Shown here: piece by piece, positions 6,469 through 22,282 of the stretch
Layout of the letters: each line of letters starts with the position of its first letter
Numbering within the stretch: position 1 is the first letter of the stretch
From: Ktedonobacterales bacterium
GTDB lineage: Bacteria > Chloroflexota > Ktedonobacteria > Ktedonobacterales > JADMIN01
Reading direction: 5' to 3'
Assembly: GCA_030167145.1 (NCBI GenBank)
Contig: CP126532.1
Coordinates: 4,710,001 to 4,742,000, forward strand
DNA length: 32,000 bases
Notes under the pieces: generated by a model
Seen by the model: only the letters and a program-made list of their open reading frames with translations
The model's database searches: none
Told to the model about the DNA's origin: nothing
Made by a program: the position numbers and the translations under genes

Positions 6469-6555
6469 ATGACAGCGGCGCAGGCATCTGATATGCTCAG
6501 GAGGAGCGCGGCGCAAGCGGAAAGGGCGAACGAGTGGCGCAAACGGATGAGATAA
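6469..6555 (+). CDS. Candidate 28-codon small ORF (MTAAQASDMLRRSAAQAERANEWRKRMR) overlapping the GT39 start
   Basis: Perfect SD AAGGAGG (6455-6461) lies 7 nt upstream of ATG 6469. TAA is at 6553-6555. There is no homology evidence, so it could be fortuitous. Confidence 0.25.
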   Translation: MTAAQASDMLRRSAAQAERANEWRKRMR

Positions 6556-8153
6556 GCAGGGGAATCACGAAGCAGAGAGCGGGCGTGCCGAATCCACTGC
6601 GCTGGCTGGCGAGCCTGCCGTGGGAGACGCGCGCGTTGTTGATTGTCTGTGGGCTTGGGTTGCTGTTGCGCCTGTGGCCCCTGGGCGGCGGTTCGCTTGA
6701 CTATGATGAGGGCGTCTACTGGCAATCGCTGCGGGCGCTGTCTGCGGGACACCCACTCTTCACCGACATTTTCAGTTCGCAGCCGCCGGGGTTCCTGCTC
6801 TGCATCTATCCGTTCTATCTGCTCTTCGGCCAATCTCTGGTTGCCGCGCGACTTGCAATCATGCTCTATTCGCTGGCTGGGTTGGTCGCGATGTATCTGC
6901 TAGGACGGGCGATTGGTGGTCGCTGGACGGGCATCGTCGCTTGCGCGCTGCTCGCGGTTGACCCGCTTTACCTGATCGAGTCACGTACACTCCAGGCCGA
7001 GGCTCCGTCGGTGGCATTTCAACTCGCCTGCGTGGCGCTGGCGGCGCTGGCTATGCGCCGGACGGGACGTGCGCGACATCTGCTGGCGCTGGCGAGTGGG
7101 GTTGCGCTGGGCCTGGGCGTGATGGTGAAGCTCTTCGATGTCGTGGCGGCGGTCCCGGCGCTGATGTACCTGCTGCTGCCTGTTGGCCTGGTCTGCTTGG
7201 ACGAGATGGGAAGATTGCGGCGACCAGCGCGACGGGACCTGGTGCATGGCGCGCGAGAGGCGTTGCCCGATGTGGCGCTGCTGGTGGTGGGGACAGTGGG
7301 GGCCATGCTGCTGGTGTTGTTGCCGTACCTGCCACACTGGGGAGCGGTCTACGATCAGGTTGTGGCGTTCCACCTTCGTGCGGGACATGCGTTTAACTAT
7401 GGATTGCTACACAACTTGCAGGAGATCGCGCGTGCGGGTGAGGAATATCCCGTCTTTATCGTGGCGGTGGTAGCGGTGGCGTTCGCAGTCTATCGGCGTG
7501 ACTGGCGCATTCTGCCGCCTGCGCTGTGGCTCCTCGTGTCGTTTATATTTCTCGTGCAACAACAGCCACTTCTCGACCATCACCGTGTGCTGCTCTCCGC
7601 GCCACTGGCGCTCACGGCGGCGGTTGGGCTGGCAATTGCCGCGTCGGTCTGGCCGAACAGTGCGCCTGCTGGCAAGCGGCGGTCACTGCCGCCAGATCAT
7701 CAGCGTCAGCGCCAAGGCGTGGCGATGTTGGCACTGACGGGGCTAACGCTCATCGCTGGGCTAGCATTTGGCTTGCATGACGCACGTATCTCGGCGCAGC
7801 CTCCCACCGAAGCGCAGATGCAGATGGTGGTCGCGTTGGAGCGCCTGACCGTGCCGGGCGCGGTGGTGGTCTGCGACGACCAGTACATCGCCGGGTTGGC
7901 GGATCGCAATGTGCCGCCAGAGTTGGTGGATACGTCGCTGGTGCGGATCAGGGCGGGGTATCTGACGGCGACGCAACTCGAAGCAGCCATTACGCGCTCG
8001 AATGCGCGGGCGATTCTCTTCGCCAGCGGGCGCTTTGAGTTGATTCCTGGCTTCAAGGAGTGGGTACAGGCGAACTTTCCGCAGCAAGTGAACGCAGGTG
8101 ACGGCCATATCCTCTATATGAAAGCGCCGACGCCAAGTAGTGCTCCGGTGTAG
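6534..8153 (+). CDS. GT39/ArnT/PMT_2-like membrane glycosyltransferase
   Basis: About 12 hydrophobic segments, with the first-loop motif LRLWPLGGGSLDYDEGVYWQSLRAL (DE-containing loop typical of GT-C family 39) and a C-terminal soluble domain. The start is uncertain (GTG 6534 or GTG 6585). Confidence 0.75.
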   Translation: MAQTDEISRGITKQRAGVPNPLRWLASLPWETRALLIVCGLGLLLRLWPLGGGSLDYDEGVYWQSLRALSAGHPLFTDIFSSQPPGFLLCIYPFYLLFGQSLVAARLAIMLYSLAGLVAMYLLGRAIGGRWTGIVACALLAVDPLYLIESRTLQAEAPSVAFQLACVALAALAMRRTGRARHLLALASGVALGLGVMVKLFDVVAAVPALMYLLLPVGLVCLDEMGRLRRPARRDLVHGAREALPDVALLVVGTVGAMLLVLLPYLPHWGAVYDQVVAFHLRAGHAFNYGLLHNLQEIARAGEEYPVFIVAVVAVAFAVYRRDWRILPPALWLLVSFIFLVQQQPLLDHHRVLLSAPLALTAAVGLAIAASVWPNSAPAGKRRSLPPDHQRQRQGVAMLALTGLTLIAGLAFGLHDARISAQPPTEAQMQMVVALERLTVPGAVVVCDDQYIAGLADRNVPPELVDTSLVRIRAGYLTATQLEAAITRSNARAILFASGRFELIPGFKEWVQANFPQQVNAGDGHILYMKAPTPSSAPV

Positions 8154-11840: not shown

Positions 11841-12497
11841 ATGTCGGAAACCAAGGCGCAAGAGACGGACGATCAGCGACCGTCGCAGGCATATGCTGAG
11901 CCAGGAGTGGACCCTGGCGAAAGCCCGTGGCGCACGGTGGCGGGGCGCGAAGTATATCGCAACCCCTGGTTGGCAGTGACAGAATACAGCGTGATACGGC
12001 CAGATGGCCTGCCAGGCATCTATGGTGTCACGGATCCAGGGGCAAACGCCACGATTGTTGCGCTGGATGAGCGGCAGAACGTGTGCCTCGTGGGGCAGTT
12101 CGTCTACCCGGTGCGGCGCTATCTGTGGTCGCTGCCGAGCGGGCGGGTGGATGATGGCGAAGATCCACTGCTGGCGGCGCGGCGTGAACTGGCGGAGGAA
12201 GCTGGCCTGACTGCCAGGGTGTGGACGCTGCTCGGCATGTACTATTTGAGTCCGGGCATTTCAACGCAGGCGACATTCATCTATCTTGCCCGTGACATGA
12301 CGGCGGGTACGCCGCAGCCAGAGGGCACGGAACGCATCTCGCTCAAGCACATGCCCCTATCCGCAGCGGTGGAATCCTGCTTGCGAGGCGAGATTTGCGA
12401 TGCGGTCAGTGTGCTGGGTCTGTGGCGCGCACAGGCGCTGCTGCGTGCGGAGGATGATGGGGGACGATCCACGCGCTCAGTCGTCGGCGACCCGTAG
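11841..12497 (+). CDS. Nudix hydrolase (ADP-ribose pyrophosphatase-like)
   Basis: Complete Nudix box GRVDDGEDPLLAARRELAEEAGL (Gx5Ex7REx2EExGU). Confidence 0.88.
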   Translation: MSETKAQETDDQRPSQAYAEPGVDPGESPWRTVAGREVYRNPWLAVTEYSVIRPDGLPGIYGVTDPGANATIVALDERQNVCLVGQFVYPVRRYLWSLPSGRVDDGEDPLLAARRELAEEAGLTARVWTLLGMYYLSPGISTQATFIYLARDMTAGTPQPEGTERISLKHMPLSAAVESCLRGEICDAVSVLGLWRAQALLRAEDDGGRSTRSVVGDP

Positions 12498-15400
12498 CGC
12501 CTGTCCGCCTAATCGCGTTGTGCGGGCGCGGATGAGTGTTAGCCCAGCTATGAACGCGACTACCAGCGCGACGTACAGAATCGCCAGGGTAAGCGGGTTG
12601 AACACTAACATGTATGGTGGCATCATCGGCCCAGACGAGCCAGCCGCCGCGCCCGCGAACTGGAGAAATGGCAGAGTGACGGTGGTGAGCAGATAACCGA
12701 GCGCTGTGCCTGCTAGCAGGCTGAAAGCGTAGACCGCCCACTGTTGCCAGAGGACGATGCCTGTGAGCTGGCGATCACTGCCGCCGAGCGCGTGCAGGAC
12801 GGCGAACTGCGCGTAGCGTCGGCGCGCGGAGACACCGCTTTGCGCAATGCTGGCGAAGATGCCTAGAAAAGCGGCCATGGCGACACCAATGAGCAGAAGT
12901 TTGCCCAGGCCAGCAGTTATGGGATCGTTGCTACTGGTCTGGGCCAGAGTGCTGCGGTCCACGACGGAACCCAGTAGCAGACTCGGATCGGAGAGCGCGC
13001 GGCTGCGCGCCGCGCTGGTATCTGGTGAGCCATCTGTATGAAGCCAGTATTCCGTTGGGCCAGTGATGCCGAGATTGCCGATTTGGGGATTATTGTACGC
13101 TGCAAACAAGTCTTGTTCATCCAGAATCACGTAGCCGCCCTCTGGTGTGTCATACATCGTGGGAAAGGCGGTGACCACTGCGCCGACGACACAAGAGACC
13201 AGATATACCCCACCTTCCTGTGGGTTGATGGCGAAGCGATCACCAGCCTTGAGGTGCAGATCTTGAGCGAAGGTGGTGTTCACGATGGCCCATATCGGCG
13301 CAGATGTCTCGCCCGCTGCCGAACTACCCATATGTGCGCGCATTGTCGTCATCAAGTTGGGTAGTGGATCCGCCGCGAAATCCGCACGCCAGTAGGCCAC
13401 CTGTGCGAAGGTTGCCGGGTCAATTCCTAGCAGGTTTACGAGGCTATTGCCAGTATCGGGCGACGTGTGGGCCTGCGTCCGGTAGATGGGCGTCTCGGCG
13501 CGCACGCCGGGCAACTTGCGGAGTGTCGCACCTAGGTTGCTGGCATAGGTGGTTTTCTGCGCCACGTCTTTCAGGGCCACTTGTGTATCGCCGCCGACGG
13601 TGTAGGCAACACGGTCCTGGGCATTGCGCGCCAGAGACCCAGCAAAGCCAAGCGAGAAGAGACCCATACCCACACAGACAGTGAGCAGCAAGGCCAGCCG
13701 GGTGTATTGCGCTGTGGCGCGCGCCATCTGTGCGAAGGCCAGCACACCTACCGCGCCACGCCCGCGTTTAGCCATCTGCGCGCCCACCGCCGCGCCAACA
13801 GGGAACATACGCAACAATAGCAATCCCCCGGCAAAGAGCGATAGCACCGGCACAAGCGCGAAGATCGGATCCGCCGTTCCCGCGGGGTTTTGCTGGCCGA
13901 GGATGCTGCGCGCCTGGAATGTGCCCAACTGTGTCAGGTCTACGTAGCCAGCGATGCAGAGCACGGCGAGAATGACATCGAGATACAGCCGCTGCCAGAG
14001 CGGACGGCGAGTCGCGCGGGCCTGTTCACGCCTGAATGCGCCAACATCGAGCCGGGCCGCGCGGAAGGCGCCGATGACCACAGCGCCGATTCCGCAGAGC
14101 GCGGCGATGATGGCTGCTTGTGTGGCGCTGCCGGGGGAGGCGACCAGGGAGATGTAGGAGCTATCTACGGGCGCGCCAATCCACCGTGCAAGCAGCAGCA
14201 TGAGGCCAGCCGCGATAGTGGGGCCGATAATCGCAGCCAGCACGGCGAATAGGCTGCCCTGCAATGTATATGCGCTCACTACCTGAATACCGCTGGCGCC
14301 ACGACTCGTCAGCGTGGCGATTTCGCCTTCGGAGTCGTCAATCAGCAGGCTGGCCATCGTGATCGAGAAGAGCAAAGCGACGCCAGCTAGCTCTGCTACG
14401 ACCATCGTGAGAGGCAGCGCCAGCAGTGCCATCTCGCTCAGCAGCGAGGTGATGAGTTTGTCGAGATTGGTGCTGACGACGATACTCCGCAGATTGGCGG
14501 CTCCTGTTTGGGCGTCGAGCCTGGTACGCAGTTGTCCAATGTGATTGGCCACGCCATGGATATTCTGAACGGTGAGCGCGTGTGCGTTGGTAGTGTAGAG
14601 ATAGTCAAGCCGCATGCCTGTAGTTGCGGCGAAGCCTGCCGATGGCGTTGCTACGCCAAGCTGGGTGAGCGCCGAGAAAAAGCCGTCACTGGTGAAGAGC
14701 AGCGGGAAGAGTGGCGGCGGTGGTGGTGGGGAATCGAGAAGGCCCTGGTCGTGCGTATCAAAGGACTGGCCGCCCCAGAAGGCTTCGTTGGGATTCTTGG
14801 GAAACCAGACGCCGACGATGCGAACGGTGACGAACTGGCCAGTGGCGCTGAGCGGAGACAGGGTGATTGTGTCGCCGGTTTTCACACCGAGTTTTGGAGT
14901 AGCGAGCGCCTCCAAGGGCTGCCCGGCGGGCACGTCTTGCGGCAGCCTGCCCGAAAAGAAATGCATATGTGGTGCGCTGGCGGTGTAGTCCAGCACATAG
15001 GGAAGAGCGGCTGAGGTGTCCAGTCCAACCTGGTGAATCGCCTTCTGGCTGCCGTTGAGGCTCTGGAAGCGAAAATTGGCGAGCGAGGCCCAGCGCCATG
15101 TGCTGGCCGTCACGTAGCCGCCCAGCGTTGTCGTTACCTCATCGTCAACCAGACCACTTACGTTGCTCGCTTCCATTGGATAGACAAAGTTTGAGACAGC
15201 GCCTATGTCCATATTGACCTGGGTAGCGGGCGCCTGCGCCAGTGTGGCTTGAAGCTCAATGTTGGACATAAGGCTGGTGTAGAGCGGCAGCCCGCAGATT
15301 AGTATGCTTGCCAGCAGACTGCCCACGTTCACAGCGAAAAGTGAGCGCAGATTGGTGCGCGCACGCAGACCCGCCAGCCGGGCACCAGCCAGCGGCCCCA

Positions 15401-15500
15401 CCCAGCGCATTCGCCACATGCGACGATCACGCTGTTCCTGACGTACTGTTACGCCGTCAGGTGTGGTAGGTGGTGGCTCCACTTGTGGAATACCGGTCAT
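12477..15500 (-). CDS. Large ABC-type permease with two FtsX domains (MacB/YbbP-like), no adjacent ATPase
   Basis: GAGGAG lies 8 nt upstream of the ATG. 1007 aa. It contains two copies of the layout TM helix, large extracytoplasmic domain, three-TM FtsX module (for example LLIDDSEGEIATLTSRGASGIQV... and RRRYAQFAVLHALGGSDRQLTGIV...). Confidence 0.8.
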   Translation of the reverse strand: MTGIPQVEPPPTTPDGVTVRQEQRDRRMWRMRWVGPLAGARLAGLRARTNLRSLFAVNVGSLLASILICGLPLYTSLMSNIELQATLAQAPATQVNMDIGAVSNFVYPMEASNVSGLVDDEVTTTLGGYVTASTWRWASLANFRFQSLNGSQKAIHQVGLDTSAALPYVLDYTASAPHMHFFSGRLPQDVPAGQPLEALATPKLGVKTGDTITLSPLSATGQFVTVRIVGVWFPKNPNEAFWGGQSFDTHDQGLLDSPPPPPPLFPLLFTSDGFFSALTQLGVATPSAGFAATTGMRLDYLYTTNAHALTVQNIHGVANHIGQLRTRLDAQTGAANLRSIVVSTNLDKLITSLLSEMALLALPLTMVVAELAGVALLFSITMASLLIDDSEGEIATLTSRGASGIQVVSAYTLQGSLFAVLAAIIGPTIAAGLMLLLARWIGAPVDSSYISLVASPGSATQAAIIAALCGIGAVVIGAFRAARLDVGAFRREQARATRRPLWQRLYLDVILAVLCIAGYVDLTQLGTFQARSILGQQNPAGTADPIFALVPVLSLFAGGLLLLRMFPVGAAVGAQMAKRGRGAVGVLAFAQMARATAQYTRLALLLTVCVGMGLFSLGFAGSLARNAQDRVAYTVGGDTQVALKDVAQKTTYASNLGATLRKLPGVRAETPIYRTQAHTSPDTGNSLVNLLGIDPATFAQVAYWRADFAADPLPNLMTTMRAHMGSSAAGETSAPIWAIVNTTFAQDLHLKAGDRFAINPQEGGVYLVSCVVGAVVTAFPTMYDTPEGGYVILDEQDLFAAYNNPQIGNLGITGPTEYWLHTDGSPDTSAARSRALSDPSLLLGSVVDRSTLAQTSSNDPITAGLGKLLLIGVAMAAFLGIFASIAQSGVSARRRYAQFAVLHALGGSDRQLTGIVLWQQWAVYAFSLLAGTALGYLLTTVTLPFLQFAGAAAGSSGPMMPPYMLVFNPLTLAILYVALVVAFIAGLTLIRARTTRLGGQALRVADD

Positions 15501-15558: not shown

Positions 15559-18500
15559 TTACACATGCGCGCGTACATAATCCGCTACAACAGGAACGGG
15601 GTGAGCGGGCACTGCTGATGCCTCGTTGGGTGCTTCATCGGGGTCAGCAGGGCAAACATCGCGAAAGGCGCAGGCGGCGCAGTGGCCGCCAACCTTCGGT
15701 GCGAAGCGTTTTTGTTCGATGCCGAGCGCCGCCGCATCGAGTTTCTGCAGCCGTGACGTCCCTTTGCCTTGGACCGCTTTGAGGTATCTTTCCGCGTCTT
15801 TCTGCGCTTTCTCGGTCACATCGAGTAATCCGCCAGGTGAGCCATCTGGCGTTTCATCAGCCAGCGCATTGCCCACGTAGGCCAGTGCGATCTTGATGGG
15901 TGCCTGGGGGTGGAACTGGTGATAGGCCAGATAGTAAAGGGCAGGATCCATGTCCTTCTCATAATGATCGGGCGATGGACGGCCCGTATGTAGCTGTACC
16001 AACAGCACCTCGGCATCGGCTGGGCGAGTTGGATCCGTGTGTACAAGCCGGTCGGCGGTGAGCTTTACCCGACACGCGGTGAGATTCGCATAGAGATCAT
16101 GCGCCAGCGTCACTCGCTCACGCGTATCGGCCTCGCGCTCAGCGGTCAGCCGCTGCCACTCTTCGCGTAGGATGGCTTCCGCGTGCCGCCAATAATAGGC
16201 ATCATAGGCGTGGCCAGCCGGACCATCGGTTTGCCAGCTCGCGCGCAGGTGTACCTCGGCGTCTTGCCACGTCGCCTGCGGCGCGGCTTCGCATAGAGCA
16301 CGCAGATCGCGTATGCCGTGGCGGACGTAACGGTGGAAGCGGTACACGGCATTCTCAGTGGGATCAAGAAGTCCATAATCATGGGCATACTTGTACTGGC
16401 GCGGACAGCCAATGTATTGTTCCAGCGCGTGAAGCGAATGCGTAGGCTTGACGTCGCGCTGCGTGTTCATTTCTGGCGGTAGGGTCCCGCCGTATTCGTC
16501 GTTTGACTCGTCCTCTTCGCTATCCTCCTCATCTGATTCGTTGTCGGGCGCGGCGAGGAGGGCCATCGCATCGTCTGAGTGTGGTGAAGGCGCGTTCTGG
16601 TATGCTGGCGCTTCGTCGAGCAGGCTGAGCAGTCGTGACGGAGCGGCGGCGCTTTTGCCGTAGTGTAGCGCTCGCGTCAGTACGACCGTGTCGCGTGCGC
16701 GCGTAACGCCGACATAGAAGAGGCAGCGATCATCATCTCCGTCGGCATCCGCAGTGTCATCTACATGGAATCCCGGTGGCGCGGGATCCGGGCGGCGGTT
16801 GTTCCTCGTTGGAAACTGGCCTTGCGCAAGCCGGGGCAGATAGACCACAGGAAATTCGAGTCCTTTGCTGGCGTGGATAGTGAGAACCGCCACAGCATTT
16901 GGATCGCTCGCGGGCACGCTGATCTCTGCCTCTGCCAGCCGCAACGCGCCGAGGTAATGCAAGAAGCACGAGGCGGCGGACGCGCTCTCCGTATCCGCCG
17001 CTATGGCTGGTGTGCCAGCAGTGGTGGGCGCAACATCGGCATCGGGTGGAAGCTCCAGCGCATCGGCGGCGGGAAACGCTGAGGAAGGTACAGCCGCAGA
17101 TATAGATGCCTGTGGAGCGGGAGCGCTGTGCCGAACGGCGCGAATGAGACGTGCGCGGAAATCCTCTTCGCGTGCCCATCGGGAATCAAAGCGCGCTGCC
17201 AGCCGCACCAGCTCGCCAAGCGCCGCCAGCGCGGCGCGCGCCTGGCCCGCATGCGCCAGGGCAGGACTCGGTATAAACATGCTGCTCATATTGGTAGGCA
17301 GCGGAAGGCCATCCGCGACGCAGGCCAGCGCCCATGCGTAACCTCTGGGGCGCAGCAGGAAGCTCGCTAACTGGTCGCTCACGCGCGGCCCATAGCGCAG
17401 CTTTGTTACTACGTTGGCGAGTGTACCCAGGCCCAATCGAGTCTCGTCCCGTATTTGCGCAATGCCCGCTAGACGTGCGGGCAGCGTCGCCAGCCCTCTG
17501 GGCATGGCCTCGTGCATGGCCACAGCTTCACGAATCAGCAGCGCATGCTCGCGTGGCCCTGGCGGCACATGACCCAGGTCTGCCAGTAGTGCGTCAACCC
17601 GTAGCAAGCCACGGCAATCGGGACCAGTGGCAAGGGCCAGCAGTGCCAGTATGTCCTTCACTTCGGGTCGTGCGAAGAAGTTGCCCTGCTGGCTCACGGG
17701 TATCTCGTTCTCTGCGAGCGCCGTCGCGAGCGCCGCTACCTGCTTATTGGAACGGCAGAGCACAGCCTGGTCACGGTATGATGTGCCTGCCGCATGCCGC
17801 TGGGCAATCGTCGCGGCGAGGCCCACGCCCTCGGCTGCGGCAGTGGGATACGCTTCGCAGCGCAGAACTGCTGGGTCTGCGATTGCGCTCCGTACAGGGA
17901 CGAGTGCCACCGGTTGGGCCAGCGCGCTTGGGTCGGGTGCTAGTTCGGCCATGCGCGCGGCCATGGTGGATCCCATGGCGACAATGCCGGGCACCGAGCG
18001 ATAGCAATAGCGCAATGTGTGGACGTGCAACGCGGGATAGTGCTGGCGCAAGAGGCTCAGATTCGCTGGTGACGCACCCCGCCAGCGATAGATGGACTGG
18101 TTACGGTCGCCGACAACCCATAGCCCTGCGCCGGTGTCGCCTGCGAGCAGCAGCAAAAGCTCACCGGCCGCGCGATTAGTATCCTGGAACTCATCCACGA
18201 GAATGTTGCGGTAGCGCTGGCGCACTTCGGCCAGTACGGCAGGGCGAGCATGCAACATCTCGACCGCGCGCTGAATCAAGCCACCGAAATCCACCAGTCC
18301 GCGACGATGCAAAGCGCGATCCCAGACGCCATAGGCTAGCGCACGTTCGTGTGCTTTGTCGATCTGGTCTTTAGAGTAGGTTCCCTCTGGAATCTCTTGC
18401 TTCGGCTTGTTCTTGCGCTTCGTTCCGGCGTTCGCGTCATGGAGTGGTTCTGGTGCGGACTGCATCGTCGCAACCAGCGCCAGGTAGCCATCGGGGGTGT

Positions 18501-19632
18501 GCAGTTCGTCACGTGCCCGTGAGAAGTCGTCCAGTAAGGTCGTGAGATGACGGGTGGGATTGCCGAGCGAGCGATAGAAGCGTAGCGGCAACTCAGCCAG
18601 CAAGTCTTCCATCAGCAGCAGCGCATCGGCCCTATCGAGGATGCGGAAGTCTGGGGTAAGCGGTGGCTCATCTGGGGCGTGGGGCGCCTGAGTCGCGAAC
18701 TCGCGCAGGAGCGTTGCGGCGAGAGCGTGGATGGTCATGACAGGCATGCGTTCGCCGTGAAGGTCATGCAGCGAGAGCCGTTCGCGCATCTCACCCGCTG
18801 CGCGATTCGAGAAGGTGAGCGCCAGGATAGATTCAGGACGCTCACCGCATTCGAGCAGCAGATATGCCGCGCGACCCACGAGCGTTTTTGTCTTACCGGT
18901 GCCCGGCCCGGCCACAATCAGCGCAGGGCCAGATGTGCGCGCGGCGGCGCGTTGCGAGTCATCCAGCGCGGAGAGCAGCTCTGACGGTTCCCCTGGCATT
19001 GGCGCGCTGGTCTCGGCTGCGGGTGGGACGGTATCGGGTTTGAGTGCGGAGAGCACCGCATCCACCAGGCGCTGGCGCATGAGCGGCGTAGAAATGCCGA
19101 AGCGCCTGGCAAGCGTCACGGCATCGGACAGTGCGGATGCGGTGAAGCAGCGCCGCACCTCAGCGCAAGGGGCGAGCAATTCCGCGGCGAATGCGTTGGC
19201 CTCTAATTCACGACGAGCGCGCGGTGTGTATTCTTCGACGCGATGGGGTTCAATCCTTAGTCCGCTGGTATCGGGCGTCTCATTCACTTCGTCTTCTTCG
19301 CAGGCTTCCTCGCGCGCCGCCAGTTCCCCGCGATGCAATACGTAGTGCCCTAACTCGTGCGCAATGGCGAAAAGTTCTTGTTCTTGTGAAAGTCCCGCGC
19401 GCAGATGTATGACACCTTCTTGGGGGGTATCCCAGTCGAAGAGCTGAAGTCGCGCATATGCGCCGCCAAGGACACCATTAGTGGTGGCCTGCGGCGAAAT
19501 CTCGATGCAACGCATCTCGCAGAGCAAGCGCAACACCACGCGGGCGTGGGGCACGTCATCCCAAGTACGCATCGCCAGTGCGTGCGACCGCAACGCGCGC
19601 GCGGCTTGCGCGATGACTTCCATACGCTCCAT
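15559..19632 (-). CDS. Multidomain fusion: N-terminal ImmA/IrrE-type (M78) Zn-metallopeptidase, UvrD/PcrA-type SF1 helicase, and C-terminal Cas4/AddB-like PD-(D/E)XK-fold domain with a 4-Cys cluster
   Basis: Peptidase: HELGH (19345-19359) plus ELEANAFAAELLAP. Helicase: Walker A AGPGTGKT (18889-18909), TFSNRAAGEMRERL, ILVDEFQDTN, VVGDRNQSIYRWRGA, TIHASKGLEFPVV, YVGVTRAR. C-terminus: LEQYIGCPRQYKY ... CAACAFRDVC (15652-15681). The start ATG overlaps the upstream stop (TAATG). Confidence 0.85.
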   Translation of the reverse strand: MERMEVIAQAARALRSHALAMRTWDDVPHARVVLRLLCEMRCIEISPQATTNGVLGGAYARLQLFDWDTPQEGVIHLRAGLSQEQELFAIAHELGHYVLHRGELAAREEACEEDEVNETPDTSGLRIEPHRVEEYTPRARRELEANAFAAELLAPCAEVRRCFTASALSDAVTLARRFGISTPLMRQRLVDAVLSALKPDTVPPAAETSAPMPGEPSELLSALDDSQRAAARTSGPALIVAGPGTGKTKTLVGRAAYLLLECGERPESILALTFSNRAAGEMRERLSLHDLHGERMPVMTIHALAATLLREFATQAPHAPDEPPLTPDFRILDRADALLLMEDLLAELPLRFYRSLGNPTRHLTTLLDDFSRARDELHTPDGYLALVATMQSAPEPLHDANAGTKRKNKPKQEIPEGTYSKDQIDKAHERALAYGVWDRALHRRGLVDFGGLIQRAVEMLHARPAVLAEVRQRYRNILVDEFQDTNRAAGELLLLLAGDTGAGLWVVGDRNQSIYRWRGASPANLSLLRQHYPALHVHTLRYCYRSVPGIVAMGSTMAARMAELAPDPSALAQPVALVPVRSAIADPAVLRCEAYPTAAAEGVGLAATIAQRHAAGTSYRDQAVLCRSNKQVAALATALAENEIPVSQQGNFFARPEVKDILALLALATGPDCRGLLRVDALLADLGHVPPGPREHALLIREAVAMHEAMPRGLATLPARLAGIAQIRDETRLGLGTLANVVTKLRYGPRVSDQLASFLLRPRGYAWALACVADGLPLPTNMSSMFIPSPALAHAGQARAALAALGELVRLAARFDSRWAREEDFRARLIRAVRHSAPAPQASISAAVPSSAFPAADALELPPDADVAPTTAGTPAIAADTESASAASCFLHYLGALRLAEAEISVPASDPNAVAVLTIHASKGLEFPVVYLPRLAQGQFPTRNNRRPDPAPPGFHVDDTADADGDDDRCLFYVGVTRARDTVVLTRALHYGKSAAAPSRLLSLLDEAPAYQNAPSPHSDDAMALLAAPDNESDEEDSEEDESNDEYGGTLPPEMNTQRDVKPTHSLHALEQYIGCPRQYKYAHDYGLLDPTENAVYRFHRYVRHGIRDLRALCEAAPQATWQDAEVHLRASWQTDGPAGHAYDAYYWRHAEAILREEWQRLTAEREADTRERVTLAHDLYANLTACRVKLTADRLVHTDPTRPADAEVLLVQLHTGRPSPDHYEKDMDPALYYLAYHQFHPQAPIKIALAYVGNALADETPDGSPGGLLDVTEKAQKDAERYLKAVQGKGTSRLQKLDAAALGIEQKRFAPKVGGHCAACAFRDVCPADPDEAPNEASAVPAHPVPVVADYVRAHV

Positions 19633-20291
19633 TAGCTCGCTGCCTCGCGAGCGATGATCTCAGCCCACTCGCGTTTCTGGTCGGGCGCGAGCATGCTGCT
19701 CTGGATAGCGCTGGCGAACGACTCCTGGCCGGGTTGCGGAGGTGAGTCGGCGTAGAAGAAGGCGTTCGCCTGAACGGGCTTGCCCAGATAGGCGCTGACG
19801 GCGTCTTCTGGCGCGTGCAGCGTCTCAGCCAGCCGTTTGACAAGTTCGCGGGGGATATCGCCAGGGGTGATCGCGCGTAAGTCGAGCTTGCCCACAATCG
19901 CCATGTTCAGGCCCACTGCCGCGCCGAGTTTCGACATAGTGAGTCCAACCGCTCTCGCGCTCCGGGCCAGACTGAGGATGCGTGTTTCCGCTGCTGGCGC
20001 AGATGCACTCTGGCGTGCGTTTGCCAGCACGCGCTGGGCAGCGGGCGAAAGTGCGGATGCGCGAGTCTCCTCAACAGGCGGGAGGTGGGCCGTCACCGCA
20101 TGGAAGAACAGCGCGAACTCTATCAATTCGGCTGCATAGTCGGGATAGCGCCGTACATAGTCCTCGACATTGGGAGACTTGCCAGCATGGTATTCGTTTG
20201 TATATTGGGCGGTGATGCTATCCAATGTGTCTTCGCGTAGCGCCTGCTCACGTTGCTGATTCGCATTCAGGTTTCGATTTCGCTTAGCCAT
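19632..20291 (-). CDS. XRE-type helix-turn-helix protein (ImmR/DdrO-like candidate partner of the fused protease)
   Basis: ATG 20291 is preceded by GAGGAGGG at 5-nt spacing and overlaps the sigma-gene stop by 8 nt (ATGGCTAA). The central segment LSLARSARAVGLTMSKLGAAVGLNMAIVGKLDLRAITPGDIP looks like an HTH_3 fold. The GTG at 20321 in the track is less likely. Confidence 0.65.
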   Translation of the reverse strand: MAKRNRNLNANQQREQALREDTLDSITAQYTNEYHAGKSPNVEDYVRRYPDYAAELIEFALFFHAVTAHLPPVEETRASALSPAAQRVLANARQSASAPAAETRILSLARSARAVGLTMSKLGAAVGLNMAIVGKLDLRAITPGDIPRELVKRLAETLHAPEDAVSAYLGKPVQANAFFYADSPPQPGQESFASAIQSSMLAPDQKREWAEIIAREAAS

Positions 20292-21078
20292 TGTTGCCCT
20301 CCTCGTCGCGGTAGCGCGCACGTAGGAATGCCATGATTCGTTTCAGACGATTGCGTACTGTTCTGCTATCCACTCCCAACAGCCGCGCGGCGTCATCTTG
20401 CGTCAAGTCGTCCCAGAACAGGAGTGCCAGAAGTTTTTGCTGCTCGGACGTCAATTCGGCAAGCAGCGCATCGAGATCTGCCGCTATCTCCACATTGGTA
20501 TACGCATCGTCTGTGCTTGTGTCTGCTGGATCAGTGCCGGGCATATCATCATCGCCAGATTTCCGAGGACTAGAAAGACTCTGTGTCATGTCCTTGGGGA
20601 TGCGTTCAGGCATATCTACCCCTGGCCGAACCCACTGCCCTTGTTTCTGCATGTAATCCCATGCCACATGTTGCTCTAGGCGTCGCAGGCTAGTGTGGAA
20701 GTGTACCTCGAAGAACTGGCGCAGAGGATTGCGCAGCGTCTCGAGCAGAGCAGTGTAGCCTTCTTGCTCCAGTTCTTCCGCCAACTCAGGAATCTGTCCG
20801 CTTCGAGAGCGATGGGCAATGTCACGCGACCACCTTGACATCTCTGTGGTCAAGGCTGAGAAGATGACCGTCACAATGCGGTTGGCTTCGGCCTCGGCCT
20901 GCGCCGCCAGCCGCTCGCGGAAGCATCTGACCAGTATCTCCACTGGCAGGAGGTCGCCTTCCTTACGCTCGATGGCGAGCCAGTAGTCCGCGCTGCCAGG
21001 GGGAGGCAACTGCTGGAAGAGAGCGTCCAGTTGAACTCGCCTGGCTGCGTGGGCATCTTCGTGGTGATCATCTCCCAT
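20284..21078 (-). CDS. Sigma-70 family RNA polymerase sigma factor, divergent ECF-like
   Basis: Region 4: LTSEQQKLLALLFWDDLTQDDAARLLGVDSRTVRNRLKRIMAFLR. Region-2-like: AEELEQEGYTALLETLRNPLRQFFEVHFHTSLRRLEQHVAWDY. ATG 21078 has AAGGAG 7 nt upstream. The longer 21213 start would contain the predicted promoter. Confidence 0.65.
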   Translation of the reverse strand: MGDDHHEDAHAARRVQLDALFQQLPPPGSADYWLAIERKEGDLLPVEILVRCFRERLAAQAEAEANRIVTVIFSALTTEMSRWSRDIAHRSRSGQIPELAEELEQEGYTALLETLRNPLRQFFEVHFHTSLRRLEQHVAWDYMQKQGQWVRPGVDMPERIPKDMTQSLSSPRKSGDDDMPGTDPADTSTDDAYTNVEIAADLDALLAELTSEQQKLLALLFWDDLTQDDAARLLGVDSRTVRNRLKRIMAFLRARYRDEEGNNG

Positions 21079-21166
21079 GCCGAACTCCTTCTTGCCAGTG
21101 GTGATAGGTCTGGCGACACGCGGAGTTCCCGCGACCACGCGCGGAAAGCGGCATGCCGTCGTCACC

Positions 21167-21195
21167 AGTATAGGAGTCGGATAGGGAACGGTCAA
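21167..21195 (-). promoter_or_regulatory. Sigma-70-type promoter for the sigma/HTH/protease-helicase operon
   Basis: On the minus strand: TTGACC (21195-21190), exactly 17-nt spacer, TATACT (21172-21167), about 82 nt upstream of ATG 21078. Confidence 0.5.
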
Positions 21196-21415
21196 CACTA
21201 GCTCTTGAAACATCGCAAACCTCTCAATTGAGGATATCAGGGACAGCAGCGGTGCGCTGCGCTCATCACTGCCTTCGAAATACGGCGGCGCGGGTCAAAG
21301 TCGGAAAGGGCCGCCCGGCATTCTTACCGTTGACACTGCCGGTACCATAGCTGAGCCAGAGGTGTCGGCCCTGAATTCATGCATGTTAAGCGCATTGGAG
21401 TAGGAGTGATTACGC

Positions 21416-22282
21416 ATGCTTCGCATCTCACGACATCTGTTGTTTCTCGCCATCTTTACCACGAGCATGCTGTTAATGGCATGCGGCAGCGCAACGGGCA
21501 GAGCATCCAGTACCCCGACATCAGCGGCGACGGCGACGGCGACGGCCACGACGCCCAGCGGCTGCGCTGCCGCTTCTGGTTTCGCTTCCGCAGGCGTGCC
21601 CAACCTGGGCGCACACTTCGGCGATGTGAGTTTTCCTTCGGGGGCGATCAGCTATAATACGACGACGCCAGAAACCAATGGCTTCCAATTCCGGCTGGTC
21701 CACACTTGTGTCGTGGGGTTGACGCCTGCCGCACTACGGAATTTTTACAACACGCACAGCACTAGCCAGGGGTGGAGTTTGACCGACACTGTGCCAGTGA
21801 ATGGCGACCTCAGCACGGCCTGCCCCACTCCTGCCTATTGTTGGATAAAGAATGATGGGGTGATCCGGTTCCTGAATCTTGAGGATGTCGCATCGGCTGG
21901 TAGCGTGACCACATACACCCTACGGCTGATTATCGAGCCGCTAGCCAGCGGTGGTGCCCTGCTCAATCCCGGTGATACCTACGACTTCGATCCAACTGGC
22001 CCAGGCAGCGGCGCCAACGATCTGACCTGGACAGGCAGCCAGTTGACACTTGCCAGCGGCGTGACCTATCACGCGGTGGGTAGTGGCGCGTTCAATACGG
22101 TGGGTTATGCAGATGTCGCGGGTTACACCTACGGCGTGGGGCCAGTGCCAGGGAGCGCGCTGGCAGTGGGGGCGATCTTTGCGGTGCAGACCGGAGATCA
22201 TCACTTTGTGAAGGTGCGAGTGGTGAATCATGCAGGCTCGCAACTGAACGTCGAAGCAGTGACCTATCCCTATACCTTTTAG
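21416..22282 (+). CDS. Secreted lipoprotein of unknown function
   Basis: GGAG-rich RBS. Signal peptide with lipobox MLRISRHLLFLAIFTTSMLLMAC, followed by a Ser/Thr/Ala linker (STPTSAATATATATTPSG). No recognisable family. Confidence 0.7.
   Translation: MLRISRHLLFLAIFTTSMLLMACGSATGRASSTPTSAATATATATTPSGCAAASGFASAGVPNLGAHFGDVSFPSGAISYNTTTPETNGFQFRLVHTCVVGLTPAALRNFYNTHSTSQGWSLTDTVPVNGDLSTACPTPAYCWIKNDGVIRFLNLEDVASAGSVTTYTLRLIIEPLASGGALLNPGDTYDFDPTGPGSGANDLTWTGSQLTLASGVTYHAVGSGAFNTVGYADVAGYTYGVGPVPGSALAVGAIFAVQTGDHHFVKVRVVNHAGSQLNVEAVTYPYTF

Follow-up and report, generated by a model that had tools for sequence, protein, structure and literature searches.

A sigma factor, an XRE-type partner and a CapP-like M78 protease fused to a UvrD-type helicase form a candidate DNA-gated regulatory cassette in Ktedonobacterales

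A 32,000-nucleotide stretch of a Ktedonobacterales genome (assembly GCA_030167145.1, contig CP126532.1, positions 4,710,001 to 4,742,000; hereafter the window) carries three minus-strand genes encoding, in order, a sigma-70-family sigma factor, a small protein with a predicted XRE-type helix-turn-helix (HTH) domain, here called the partner, and a fusion of an M78 metallopeptidase to a UvrD-type helicase and a Cas4/AdnA-like domain. The locus is best explained as one copy, standing alone, of a three-gene sensor-regulator cassette that is widespread and follows the principle of CapH/CapP, ImmA/ImmR, and IrrE/DdrO, in which, as we consider fairly probable, engagement of the helicase with DNA would release the protease, the partner would be cleaved, and sigma-dependent transcription would be freed. 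In both IrrE/DdrO of Deinococcus and ImmA/ImmR of ICEBs1, an M78 protease is paired with an XRE repressor, and the pair answers DNA damage or single-stranded DNA (ssDNA). The three genes had been picked out from the letters of the window without database searches (the sequence-only reading); the stop-start overlaps claimed there were exact at both junctions (ATGGCTAA at 20291-20284 between the sigma factor and partner genes, TAATG at 19634-19630 between the partner and fusion genes), and the last gene was indeed a single open reading frame (ORF) of 1357 amino acids (aa) at 15559-19632, the other two of the three ORFs spanning 19632-20321/20291 and 20284-21213.

The N-terminal domain of the fusion was matched by Peptidase_M78 (PF06114, 6e-15; 55.6 bits vs a cut-off of 22), and the metallopeptidase claimed by the sequence-only reading was borne out by its catalytic residues, H92, E93, H96, and E144 being invariant or nearly so among 115 homologues, as are HELGH, EANAFAAELL, the Walker A motif, DEFQD, and four C-terminal cysteines. 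By profile comparison, CapP is the closest solved relative of this domain (M78 family profile vs 7T5T, E 3.6e-13; vs IrrE, E 9e-6), and the PADLOC capP model matched the fusion at 2e-15. The family-invariant C111 aligns with the switch cysteine of CapP and is followed by acidic residues (C-E-E-D-E); over 181 fusions, the cysteine was found in 163 and at least two acidic residues after it in 136. CapP is inactive until ssDNA enters a groove that lies between its peptidase domain and its GAF domain and displaces the cysteine switch loop (C114, D117, D118) (PMC13228613), and activated CapP cleaves the XRE protein CapH (10.1101/2022.04.27.489752; PMC13228613). By analogy, the loop of the fusion fits a latent, DNA-gated protease, and that both HExxH and the cysteine switch are conserved speaks for an enzyme that works and is regulated. 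No GAF match was obtained in the fusion with Pfam, the residues from 225 on being UvrD helicase.

In this helicase part, the complete UvrD/superfamily 1 (SF1) motif set of the sequence-only reading was recovered: UvrD-helicase (PF00580, 1e-57) and UvrD_C (PF13361, 3e-29) matched in Pfam, motifs I-VI are intact, and GPGTGKT and DE(F/Y)QD are invariant in the 115 homologues. Rep, UvrD, and PcrA matched the core at E ~1e-50, and AdnB matched as well. Ktedonobacterales-type proteins carry an insertion of ~230 aa in the helicase 2B region (aa ~680-910; window 16900-17590) that accounts for most of the length gap to the 1130-aa forms. The C-terminal domain was matched by PDDEXK_1 (PF12705, 5e-11); a single-sequence search of the PDB with this domain gave no match, and the best PDB match of its family profile was AdnA of M. 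smegmatis (E 5e-9). Four invariant cysteines (C1076, C1318, C1321, C1327) make up an Fe-S-type signature, C...CxxCx5C, and the motif-II Asp is conserved (115 homologues). With the register fixed by aligning llVrlrtGrp of the family with VVVDLKTGKS of AdnA, the catalytic motif mutated in 6PPJ, motif III, i.e., (D/E)xK, reads Q1213-L-H1215 in the window and R-x-H/R family-wide: R occupies the acid position in 110/115 members, the window protein having Q, H or R stands in place of the Lys, and at least 70 of 71 more diverse representatives have neither D nor E at the acid position. Of the Cas4/AddB-like domain that had been proposed, the fold and the four cysteines hence stood and the catalytic (D/E)xK did not. 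Since the nuclease acid and lysine are lost while the cysteines are kept, sensing rather than cutting is suggested, and the domain probably serves as an Fe-S module that binds DNA without cutting it.

The window partner itself gave no match in single-sequence searches of Pfam, NCBIfam, or PADLOC, and the earlier XRE-HTH assignment therefore held through the family and the fold, not through a profile match in this protein. The partners form one family (BLASTP/hidden Markov model (HMM) E 1e-12 to 1e-48), in which 22 of 33 members matched HTH_31 (E up to 1 accepted; best 2e-5) and a further match was to HTH_3; the best PDB match of the family profile was the XRE-type protein 3kxa (E 0.013). An AlphaFold2 (AF2) model with a predicted local distance difference test score (pLDDT) of 79 showed a central five-helix domain (residues ~108-170), for which Foldseek returned 434 repressor, SinR, P22 c2, C.AhdI, and the CapH N-terminal domain (NTD) with template modeling (TM) scores to the target of 0.64-0.76 (0.73 for CapH NTD, 7t5u), each fold match at E 0.05-0.5. 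An XRE-type HTH fold is thus supported by the model. The HTH (aa ~108-170) follows an N-terminal helical module (aa 7-96; motif EDYVRRYPDYAAEL) and precedes a conserved disordered linker (aa 171-190, AFFYADSPP) and a helical pair (aa 192-218). The linker has low model confidence yet is conserved across phyla as [AS]-[FYM]-[YK]-[AS]-D-x-x-P.

The N-terminal motif of the partner, EDYVRRYP-x-YA-x-EL, also heads Ser/Thr kinases encoded right after canonical extracytoplasmic function (ECF) sigma genes, a gene pairing of ECF43 type. At two such loci (L041:1794-2717 and L043:486-1441), the ECF sigma gene is joined by a start-stop overlap to the kinase gene, and the kinase N-terminus reads EYLRRYPEFAxEL. 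This recurrence hints that the partner N-terminal module docks on sigma factors and is possibly a portable sigma-docking module. No anti-sigma model, fold, or PDB match was obtained for the partner with Pfam, the family-profile PDB search, or Foldseek; going by the shared motif and the coupling of the genes, the partner may act as an anti-sigma factor instead of, or besides, a DNA-binding repressor.

The identity of the first gene as a sigma factor was upheld by Sigma70_r4_2 (6e-12) and by NCBIfam TIGR02937 of the sigma-70/ECF superfamily (49.8 bits vs a cut-off of 42.9; aa 129-299 of the 309-aa ORF), and the orthologue at L005 scored above the cut-off for Sigma70_r2. Sigma homologues of all cassette types show weak but significant relatedness (HMM E 1e-6 to 1e-55), with an N-terminal extension of ~85 aa and a long sigma2-sigma4 linker in the window protein; a homologue search with it gave six matches and was dominated by generic sigma factors. 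The 309-aa ORF from 21213 was rejected as the gene, its N-terminal 45 aa being translated promoter DNA; the apparent N-terminal conservation in ~309-aa sigma calls (L-T...P-I-L...K-E-x-G-V/M) arises because the underlying promoter DNA is conserved. The promoter TTGACC-17-TATACT had been claimed from the sequence, and is present at 21195-21167 and conserved in at least 11 loci. By itself it is weak evidence, as a promoter scan of 7 kb gave 4 such sites vs 1.9 expected. Its form TTGAC(A/C/G)-17/18-TATACT(GG), followed after ~90-110 nt by AAGGAG-N6-(A/G)TG, recurs in the window, L001, L002, L007-L010, L016, L017, and L021, with 100% identity in L052 and L053, two close relatives; this conservation of DNA across loci backs the promoter by phylogenetic footprinting and places the sigma start at ATG 21078 (264 aa).

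That the fusion is a genuine protein and not an assembly artefact was confirmed by ~66 full-length Ktedonobacterales homologues of the same architecture (42-53% identity), which is also kept in shorter forms of 1100-1200 aa. A search of 1.84 billion representatives with the M78 module gave 619 matches; among the best 150 (50%-identity clusters), which were examined, 79 are at least 1000 aa long and have HExxH, Walker A, mostly DEFQD, and C-terminal CxxCx5C. With tblastn, the M78-helicase junction was found in 72 plasmid records at a coverage of at least 80%, from Rhizobiales, Roseovarius, Polymorphum, and the cyanobacterium Leptolyngbya. Triads of sigma-like, partner, and fusion genes were present at L001, L002/L003, L004, L005 (Chloroflexia), L006, L008, L009, L012, L044, the six plasmid loci L045-L049 and L051, and at L052 and L053, the syntenic close relatives of the window triad; the partner is ~185-230 aa long throughout, stop-start overlaps are frequent, the fusions are collinear, and the flanking genes are unrelated. 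Among 31 metagenome loci retrieved with the partner protein, 21 had enough downstream DNA, and in 20 of these the M78-helicase gene follows directly after the partner gene, with a sigma-like gene upstream in most. The three-gene neighbourhood is therefore conserved in metagenomes, in Chloroflexota, and on plasmids, and the cassette ranges over Chloroflexota, Alphaproteobacteria plasmids, and one cyanobacterial plasmid. A profile search of genome contigs with the partner alignment, in which the pattern was narrow, returned three loci. One full-length fusion (P0042; 49% identity to the Ktedonobacterales protein) is labelled as from a Nitrososphaerota archaeon metagenome-assembled genome, a label that is probably a binning error judging from this identity. 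Two triads have OrfB/TnpB genes of the IS605 family no more than a few kb away (L001:14657-15829 and L012:1480-2595).

On every plasmid sampled for which downstream sequence was available, genes for Multi_ubiq, ThiF (E1), and DUF6527 come next after the cassette, an arrangement defined as a Type II Bub operon (PMC11601603). The same arrangement follows the cassette at L044, and BilA, BilB, and BilD follow it at L006:9810-12681. These effector-linked plasmid cassettes belong to Rhizobiales, Roseovarius, and Leptolyngbya, and AbiEii/DUF6088, an N-6 methylase, or a second UvrD helicase is often near such cassettes, with GmrSD near some relatives. No Bub/Bil gene was present in the window or near any Chloroflexota-type triad locus. 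Two ideas of the sequence-only reading thus hold in part: the system is self-contained in the window, where the copy stands alone, and not in relatives that sit directly upstream of Type II Bub/Bil operons; conversely, the link to defence that it offered as an alternative applies to the family and is not visible at the window locus. CapH and CapP adjoin 31% of Bub and 15% of Bil operons according to the Bub and Bil papers, which never mention a helicase there, and a sigma factor accompanies capH and capP in 24 systems of the cyclic oligonucleotide-based antiphage signaling type (CBASS; Lau et al. 2022, 10.1101/2022.04.27.489752). A search of open-access literature gave no description of an M78-UvrD fusion or of this triad, and the sequence-only reading likewise knew of no characterised example, although the sigma factor beside capH/capP in Lau et al. 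is a partial precedent.

A bipartite promoter-like element ties the cassette to these operons. The pattern TTCCG(C/G/A)-N17-G(T/G)AT lies 60-240 nt upstream of the sigma-70-type promoter in Ktedonobacterales-type loci and has a single match in the 32-kb window (21306-21280) vs 0.17 expected. Of 11 Chloroflexota-type lineages, 6 have it upstream of the sigma gene (P ~1e-9), and the related T(A/T)CCG(G/C)-N16-C(G/T)AT was found ~80 nt upstream of the ubiquitin-like (Ubl) gene in 7 of 7 effector-linked loci (P 6e-16), both patterns having been defined post hoc, after the data were seen. In plasmid-type loci, this takes the form T(A/T)CCG(G/C)-N16-CGATT ~80 nt upstream of bubA, and the partner gene has a further copy upstream, ~210 nt before its start, which falls within the 3' part of the sigma gene (five of six plasmid loci and L044; in L045 the copy is near the sigma 5' end). 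At L006, an identical TTTCCGGTTT-N12-CCTATTGAT stands upstream of both the sigma gene and bilA, and in L052 and L053 both boxes of the window element are invariant while the spacer has substitutions. The fixed spacing, the orientation towards the genes, and the presence before both cassette and effector fit a promoter of the cassette's sigma factor; the element is probably read by this sigma factor, which makes autoregulation a candidate in the window and the sigma-dependent output proposed earlier plausible.

Copies of TTTCCGC had also been considered as a conserved palindromic operator. This candidate was weakened, as the placement of the half-sites varies by locus, with a perfect TTTCCGC-N5-GCGGAAA in L004, and L052 and L053 do not keep the right arm of the window inverted repeat; a bipartite promoter is the better fit. 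The repeat at 21126-21147 remains a weak operator candidate. Words like TTTCCGC are enriched upstream of sigma genes, where AAGCGG was found in 8 of 8 regions and AAGCGGAA occurred 6 times vs 0.09 expected. A second exact AAGCGGAAA at 6517-6525 of the window, just upstream of an ORF for a PMT-type glycosyltransferase (6534-8153), is compatible with chance, being one 9-mer per 32 kb.

Table 1 Features of the three-gene locus, with positions counted from the first nucleotide of the window
Feature	Position	Strand	Basis or remark
Sigma-70-family (ECF-like) sigma factor, 264 aa	20284-21078	-	Shine-Dalgarno AAGGAG at 21090-21085; HMMs
Partner protein, 219 aa	19632-20291	-	Start overlaps sigma stop (ATGGCTAA)
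Fusion protein, 1357 aa	15559-19632	-	Start overlaps partner stop (TAATG)
CapP-like M78 metallopeptidase domain, aa 64-189 of fusion	19066-19443	-	H92-E93-x-x-H96, C111-EEDE, E144
UvrD/Rep/PcrA-type SF1A helicase core, aa 225-986 of fusion	16675-18960	-	Pfam, PDB profile, motifs
Cas4/AdnA-like PD-(D/E)XK-fold domain, aa 1066-1328 of fusion	15649-16437	-	Four Cys kept, catalytic motif lost
Sigma-70-type promoter TTGACC-17-TATACT	21167-21195	-	Kept at constant spacing in 11 or more loci
Bipartite promoter-like element: TTTCCGA (21307-21301), 17-nt spacer, GTATTTCG (21283-21276)	21276-21307	-	Pattern conservation
Second TTTCCGC (21147-21141) and imperfect inverted GCGGGAA (21132-21126), operator candidate (weak)	21126-21147	-	~+13 to +34 from predicted start

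The surroundings of the locus are housekeeping and not a defence island, with the window encoding the DNA polymerase III (Pol III) delta subunit, the PMT-type glycosyltransferase, DUF2232, NUDIX, an FtsX permease, NAD kinase, RecN, APH, and TopA. The immediate neighbours are the FtsX permease and a 288-aa protein without family match. The former, an FtsX-domain membrane protein of 1007 aa (12477-15500), lies on the strand of the fusion gene, begins 58 nt downstream of it, and could be co-transcribed with it, a position that is not kept in other triad loci; the latter is encoded divergently at 21416-22282 and has no Pfam match. Synteny is shared within three groups of loci (L002/L007; L001/L008/L010; window/L052/L053), and as the genomes concerned are closely related, this suggests vertical inheritance of the effector-less window copy. 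Such a setting, including RecN, TopA, and the Pol III delta subunit, would also suit a DNA-repair or recombination helicase of UvrD/AdnAB type, the expression of which would be controlled by the sigma factor and the partner and the M78 domain of which would be structural or self-processing; the strong likeness of the core to Rep, UvrD, PcrA, and AdnB, the synteny among close relatives, and the existence of orphan fusions speak for it. This explanation is nevertheless unlikely, as the family-wide loss of the catalytic nuclease residues makes end-resection unlikely, conservation extends to HExxH and the cysteine switch, linkage to the XRE partner is tight, and relatives are wired to Bub/Bil operons in defence islands.

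The motor is also matched by the PADLOC models for GajB and the DRT helicase, and relatives adjoin AbiEii, methylase, GmrSD, and Bil/Bub genes, so that the three genes might be read as an anti-phage system with the helicase fusion as effector, as in Gabija or Hachiman, instead of as regulator. We regard this as clearly improbable: the GajB match reflects generic UvrD similarity, neither GajA nor another nuclease partner is encoded, the sole nuclease-like domain is without catalytic residues, and the window is not a defence island. In effector-linked loci, moreover, the cassette takes the position of a regulator and shares a promoter element with the operon. The phage records found with tblastn matched the helicase part only, none of them covering the M78 part, and no relatives were found in viral contigs searched with the M78 module.

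The lack of Bub/Bil genes near any Chloroflexota-type triad would be expected as well of a relic regulator cassette that lost its effector operon and drifts without function. One copy (L007:4290-9342, syntenic with L002) is frameshifted, with the partner in three frames and the fusion split (1113 + 218 aa), and is either a pseudogene or the product of assembly errors; the M78-coding region, furthermore, evolves faster than the rest, with 77-78% DNA identity to L052/L053 vs 82-90% in flanking coding DNA. Drift is very unlikely all the same, given that the ~66 full-length Ktedonobacterales homologues keep all peptidase, helicase, and cysteine motifs, the promoters are conserved, the intergenic region (21079-21415) is ~88% identical to L052/L053 and thus conserved like coding DNA, and translational coupling is retained. 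A toxin-antitoxin module of XRE-COG2856 type, in which the M78 protein would be the toxin and the HTH protein the antitoxin, is most improbable: such gene pairs were proposed as toxin-antitoxin modules (PMC4257102), and the 7T5T chain is named 'CapP toxin' by its depositors, but a 1357-aa helicase fusion and a linked sigma factor misfit that layout, and CapP and IrrE are experimentally proteases of repressors. Taken together, the repair-helicase, stand-alone defence, relic, and toxin-antitoxin explanations each fit the intact protease motifs, the loss of the nuclease motif, the position as regulator, and the promoter conservation less well than does a sensor-regulator cassette of CapH/CapP type.

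For this cassette, the domain layout, the state of the motifs (kept or lost), the conservation of the three genes and of the promoter element, and the linkage of relatives to effectors are shown; DNA gating, cleavage of the partner and its site, the anti-sigma or repressor role, and the promoter specificity of the sigma factor are what we infer, and the mechanism would run as follows. The fusion would be a latent M78 peptidase gated by the cysteine switch, in which sensing is done by the UvrD-type motor and the nuclease-dead four-cysteine Cas4/AdnA-like domain, and loading of the motor on ssDNA, DNA ends, or foreign or damaged DNA would release the peptidase. The peptidase would then cleave the co-translated partner, most likely in the linker between the XRE HTH and the C-terminal helical pair. 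Until then, the partner would keep the system off by transcriptional repression, by sequestering the sigma factor via the ECF-linked N-terminal module, or by both; cleavage would free the ECF-like sigma factor for transcription from promoters of the type TTTCCGx-N17-GTAT, including that of its own operon, and in other lineages the same promoter type would drive the adjacent Type II Bub/Bil operon. As no effector is adjacent in this Ktedonobacterales genome, any further sigma targets would lie elsewhere.

Several observations weigh against this account. Orphan fusions exist without a nearby sigma or partner gene (L011:6001-10089, P0250; L013:1462-5280, P0107), and at L031:1640-4312, sigma and partner genes are followed by a gene of the Ni_insertion (nickel-insertion) family and no fusion, so that the sigma-partner pair can exist without an adjacent fusion. 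The cysteine switch is missing in Alphaproteobacterial and cyanobacterial plasmid-type fusions, and gating therefore cannot be uniform. The partner was not recognised as CapH by PADLOC or by sequence, and the AF2 model of the sigma factor (pLDDT 56) is unusable, its identity resting on HMMs. As to the DNA elements, the bipartite patterns were post hoc, their relaxed form occurs once per 9 kb, and of the window inverted repeat only the left half-site is kept in L052/L053, so that no HTH operator is established. In the window, no target gene was identified besides the operon itself. The orphan P0250 is likewise without the cysteine switch; its 250-aa N-terminal extension was considered as a fused partner and rejected, being an over-extended ORF that overlaps a divergent cysteine desulfurase gene.

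M78 proteases of CapH/CapP, IrrE/DdrO, and ImmA/ImmR turn DNA-damage signals into transcription, and how such switches read their signal is only now emerging, passive binding of ssDNA in the peptidase-GAF groove being involved. In the present family, a full SF1 motor and a probable Fe-S module for end binding stand in place of the groove-forming domain, and a dedicated sigma factor is added. If the model is true, nature would have supplied an experiment on the coupling between engagement of DNA and gating of the protease, with ATP dependence, polarity, and end-vs-gap preference as testable properties; the cassette would be a probable regulator of many Type II Bub/Bil operons, and its survival without effector in a whole bacterial order would point to a dispersed stress regulon or a new use. 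Family members in culturable Rhizobium, Agrobacterium, and Sinorhizobium strains, with tractable homologues located on Rhizobiaceae plasmids, make experiments feasible. More speculatively, and in our estimation only a tentative possibility, a defence-regulator cassette would have been domesticated in Ktedonobacterales as the master switch of an SOS-independent response to DNA damage or foreign DNA, in which an ATP-driven helicase and not passive binding of ssDNA licenses an M78 protease to destroy a combined anti-sigma factor and repressor, and the dedicated ECF-like sigma factor so released drives a dispersed TTTCCGx-N17-GTAT regulon; a sigma/anti-sigma pathway with a translocating DNA motor as its trigger would be the first of its kind.

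Among known systems, GajB of Gabija shares with the fusion a UvrD-like helicase of defence contexts (PADLOC E 8e-70), but this similarity is that of a generic motor, no GajA is encoded beside the fusion, and both the protease and the Fe-S domain are absent from GajB. AdnAB, AddAB, and RecB together with Cas4 show the same order of an SF1 motor and a PD-(D/E)XK-fold domain and the Cas4/AddB-type four-cysteine signature, whereas in all members of the fusion family (D/E)xK has become R/Q-x-H/R, no second subunit is encoded, and a protease is present at the N-terminus. ECF sigma/anti-sigma pairs, including the ECF43-type kinase pairs, likewise show translational coupling of a small sigma-70 group-4-like protein to a regulator encoded downstream, and an apparent autoregulatory promoter is a further likeness; the kinase pairs also share the N-terminal motif of the partner. 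In contrast, the partner is cytoplasmic, carries an XRE HTH and no recognisable anti-sigma domain, and release is proposed to occur by a cytoplasmic M78 protease instead of by proteolysis at the membrane or by phosphorylation.

In its chromosomal setting without effector, the window copy is like IrrE/DdrO, the controller of a dispersed regulon. IrrE, however, is the more distant M78 relative (profile E as given above) and is without a cysteine switch, neither IrrE/DdrO nor ImmA/ImmR has a helicase fusion or a sigma factor, and no operator like the radiation/desiccation response motif (RDRM) was identified at the window locus. CapH/CapP differs in that the C-terminal GAF domain of CapP forms the ssDNA groove, for which the fusion has ~1150 aa of UvrD motor and Fe-S nuclease-like domain instead, in that the window partner, undetected as CapH, carries an extra N-terminal domain of ~100 aa, and in that the cassette genes are co-directional and coupled to the sigma gene, not divergent from an effector operon, which the window copy lacks. 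The cassette shares with CapH/CapP an M78 peptidase that carries acidic residues and a cysteine-switch loop, an adjacent XRE-fold protein with HTH, linker, and short C-terminal helical domain (predicted for the partner), the position of a regulator beside Bub/Bil operons in its homologous forms, and the company of a sigma-70-family gene, as found with capH/capP in the 24 CBASS systems.

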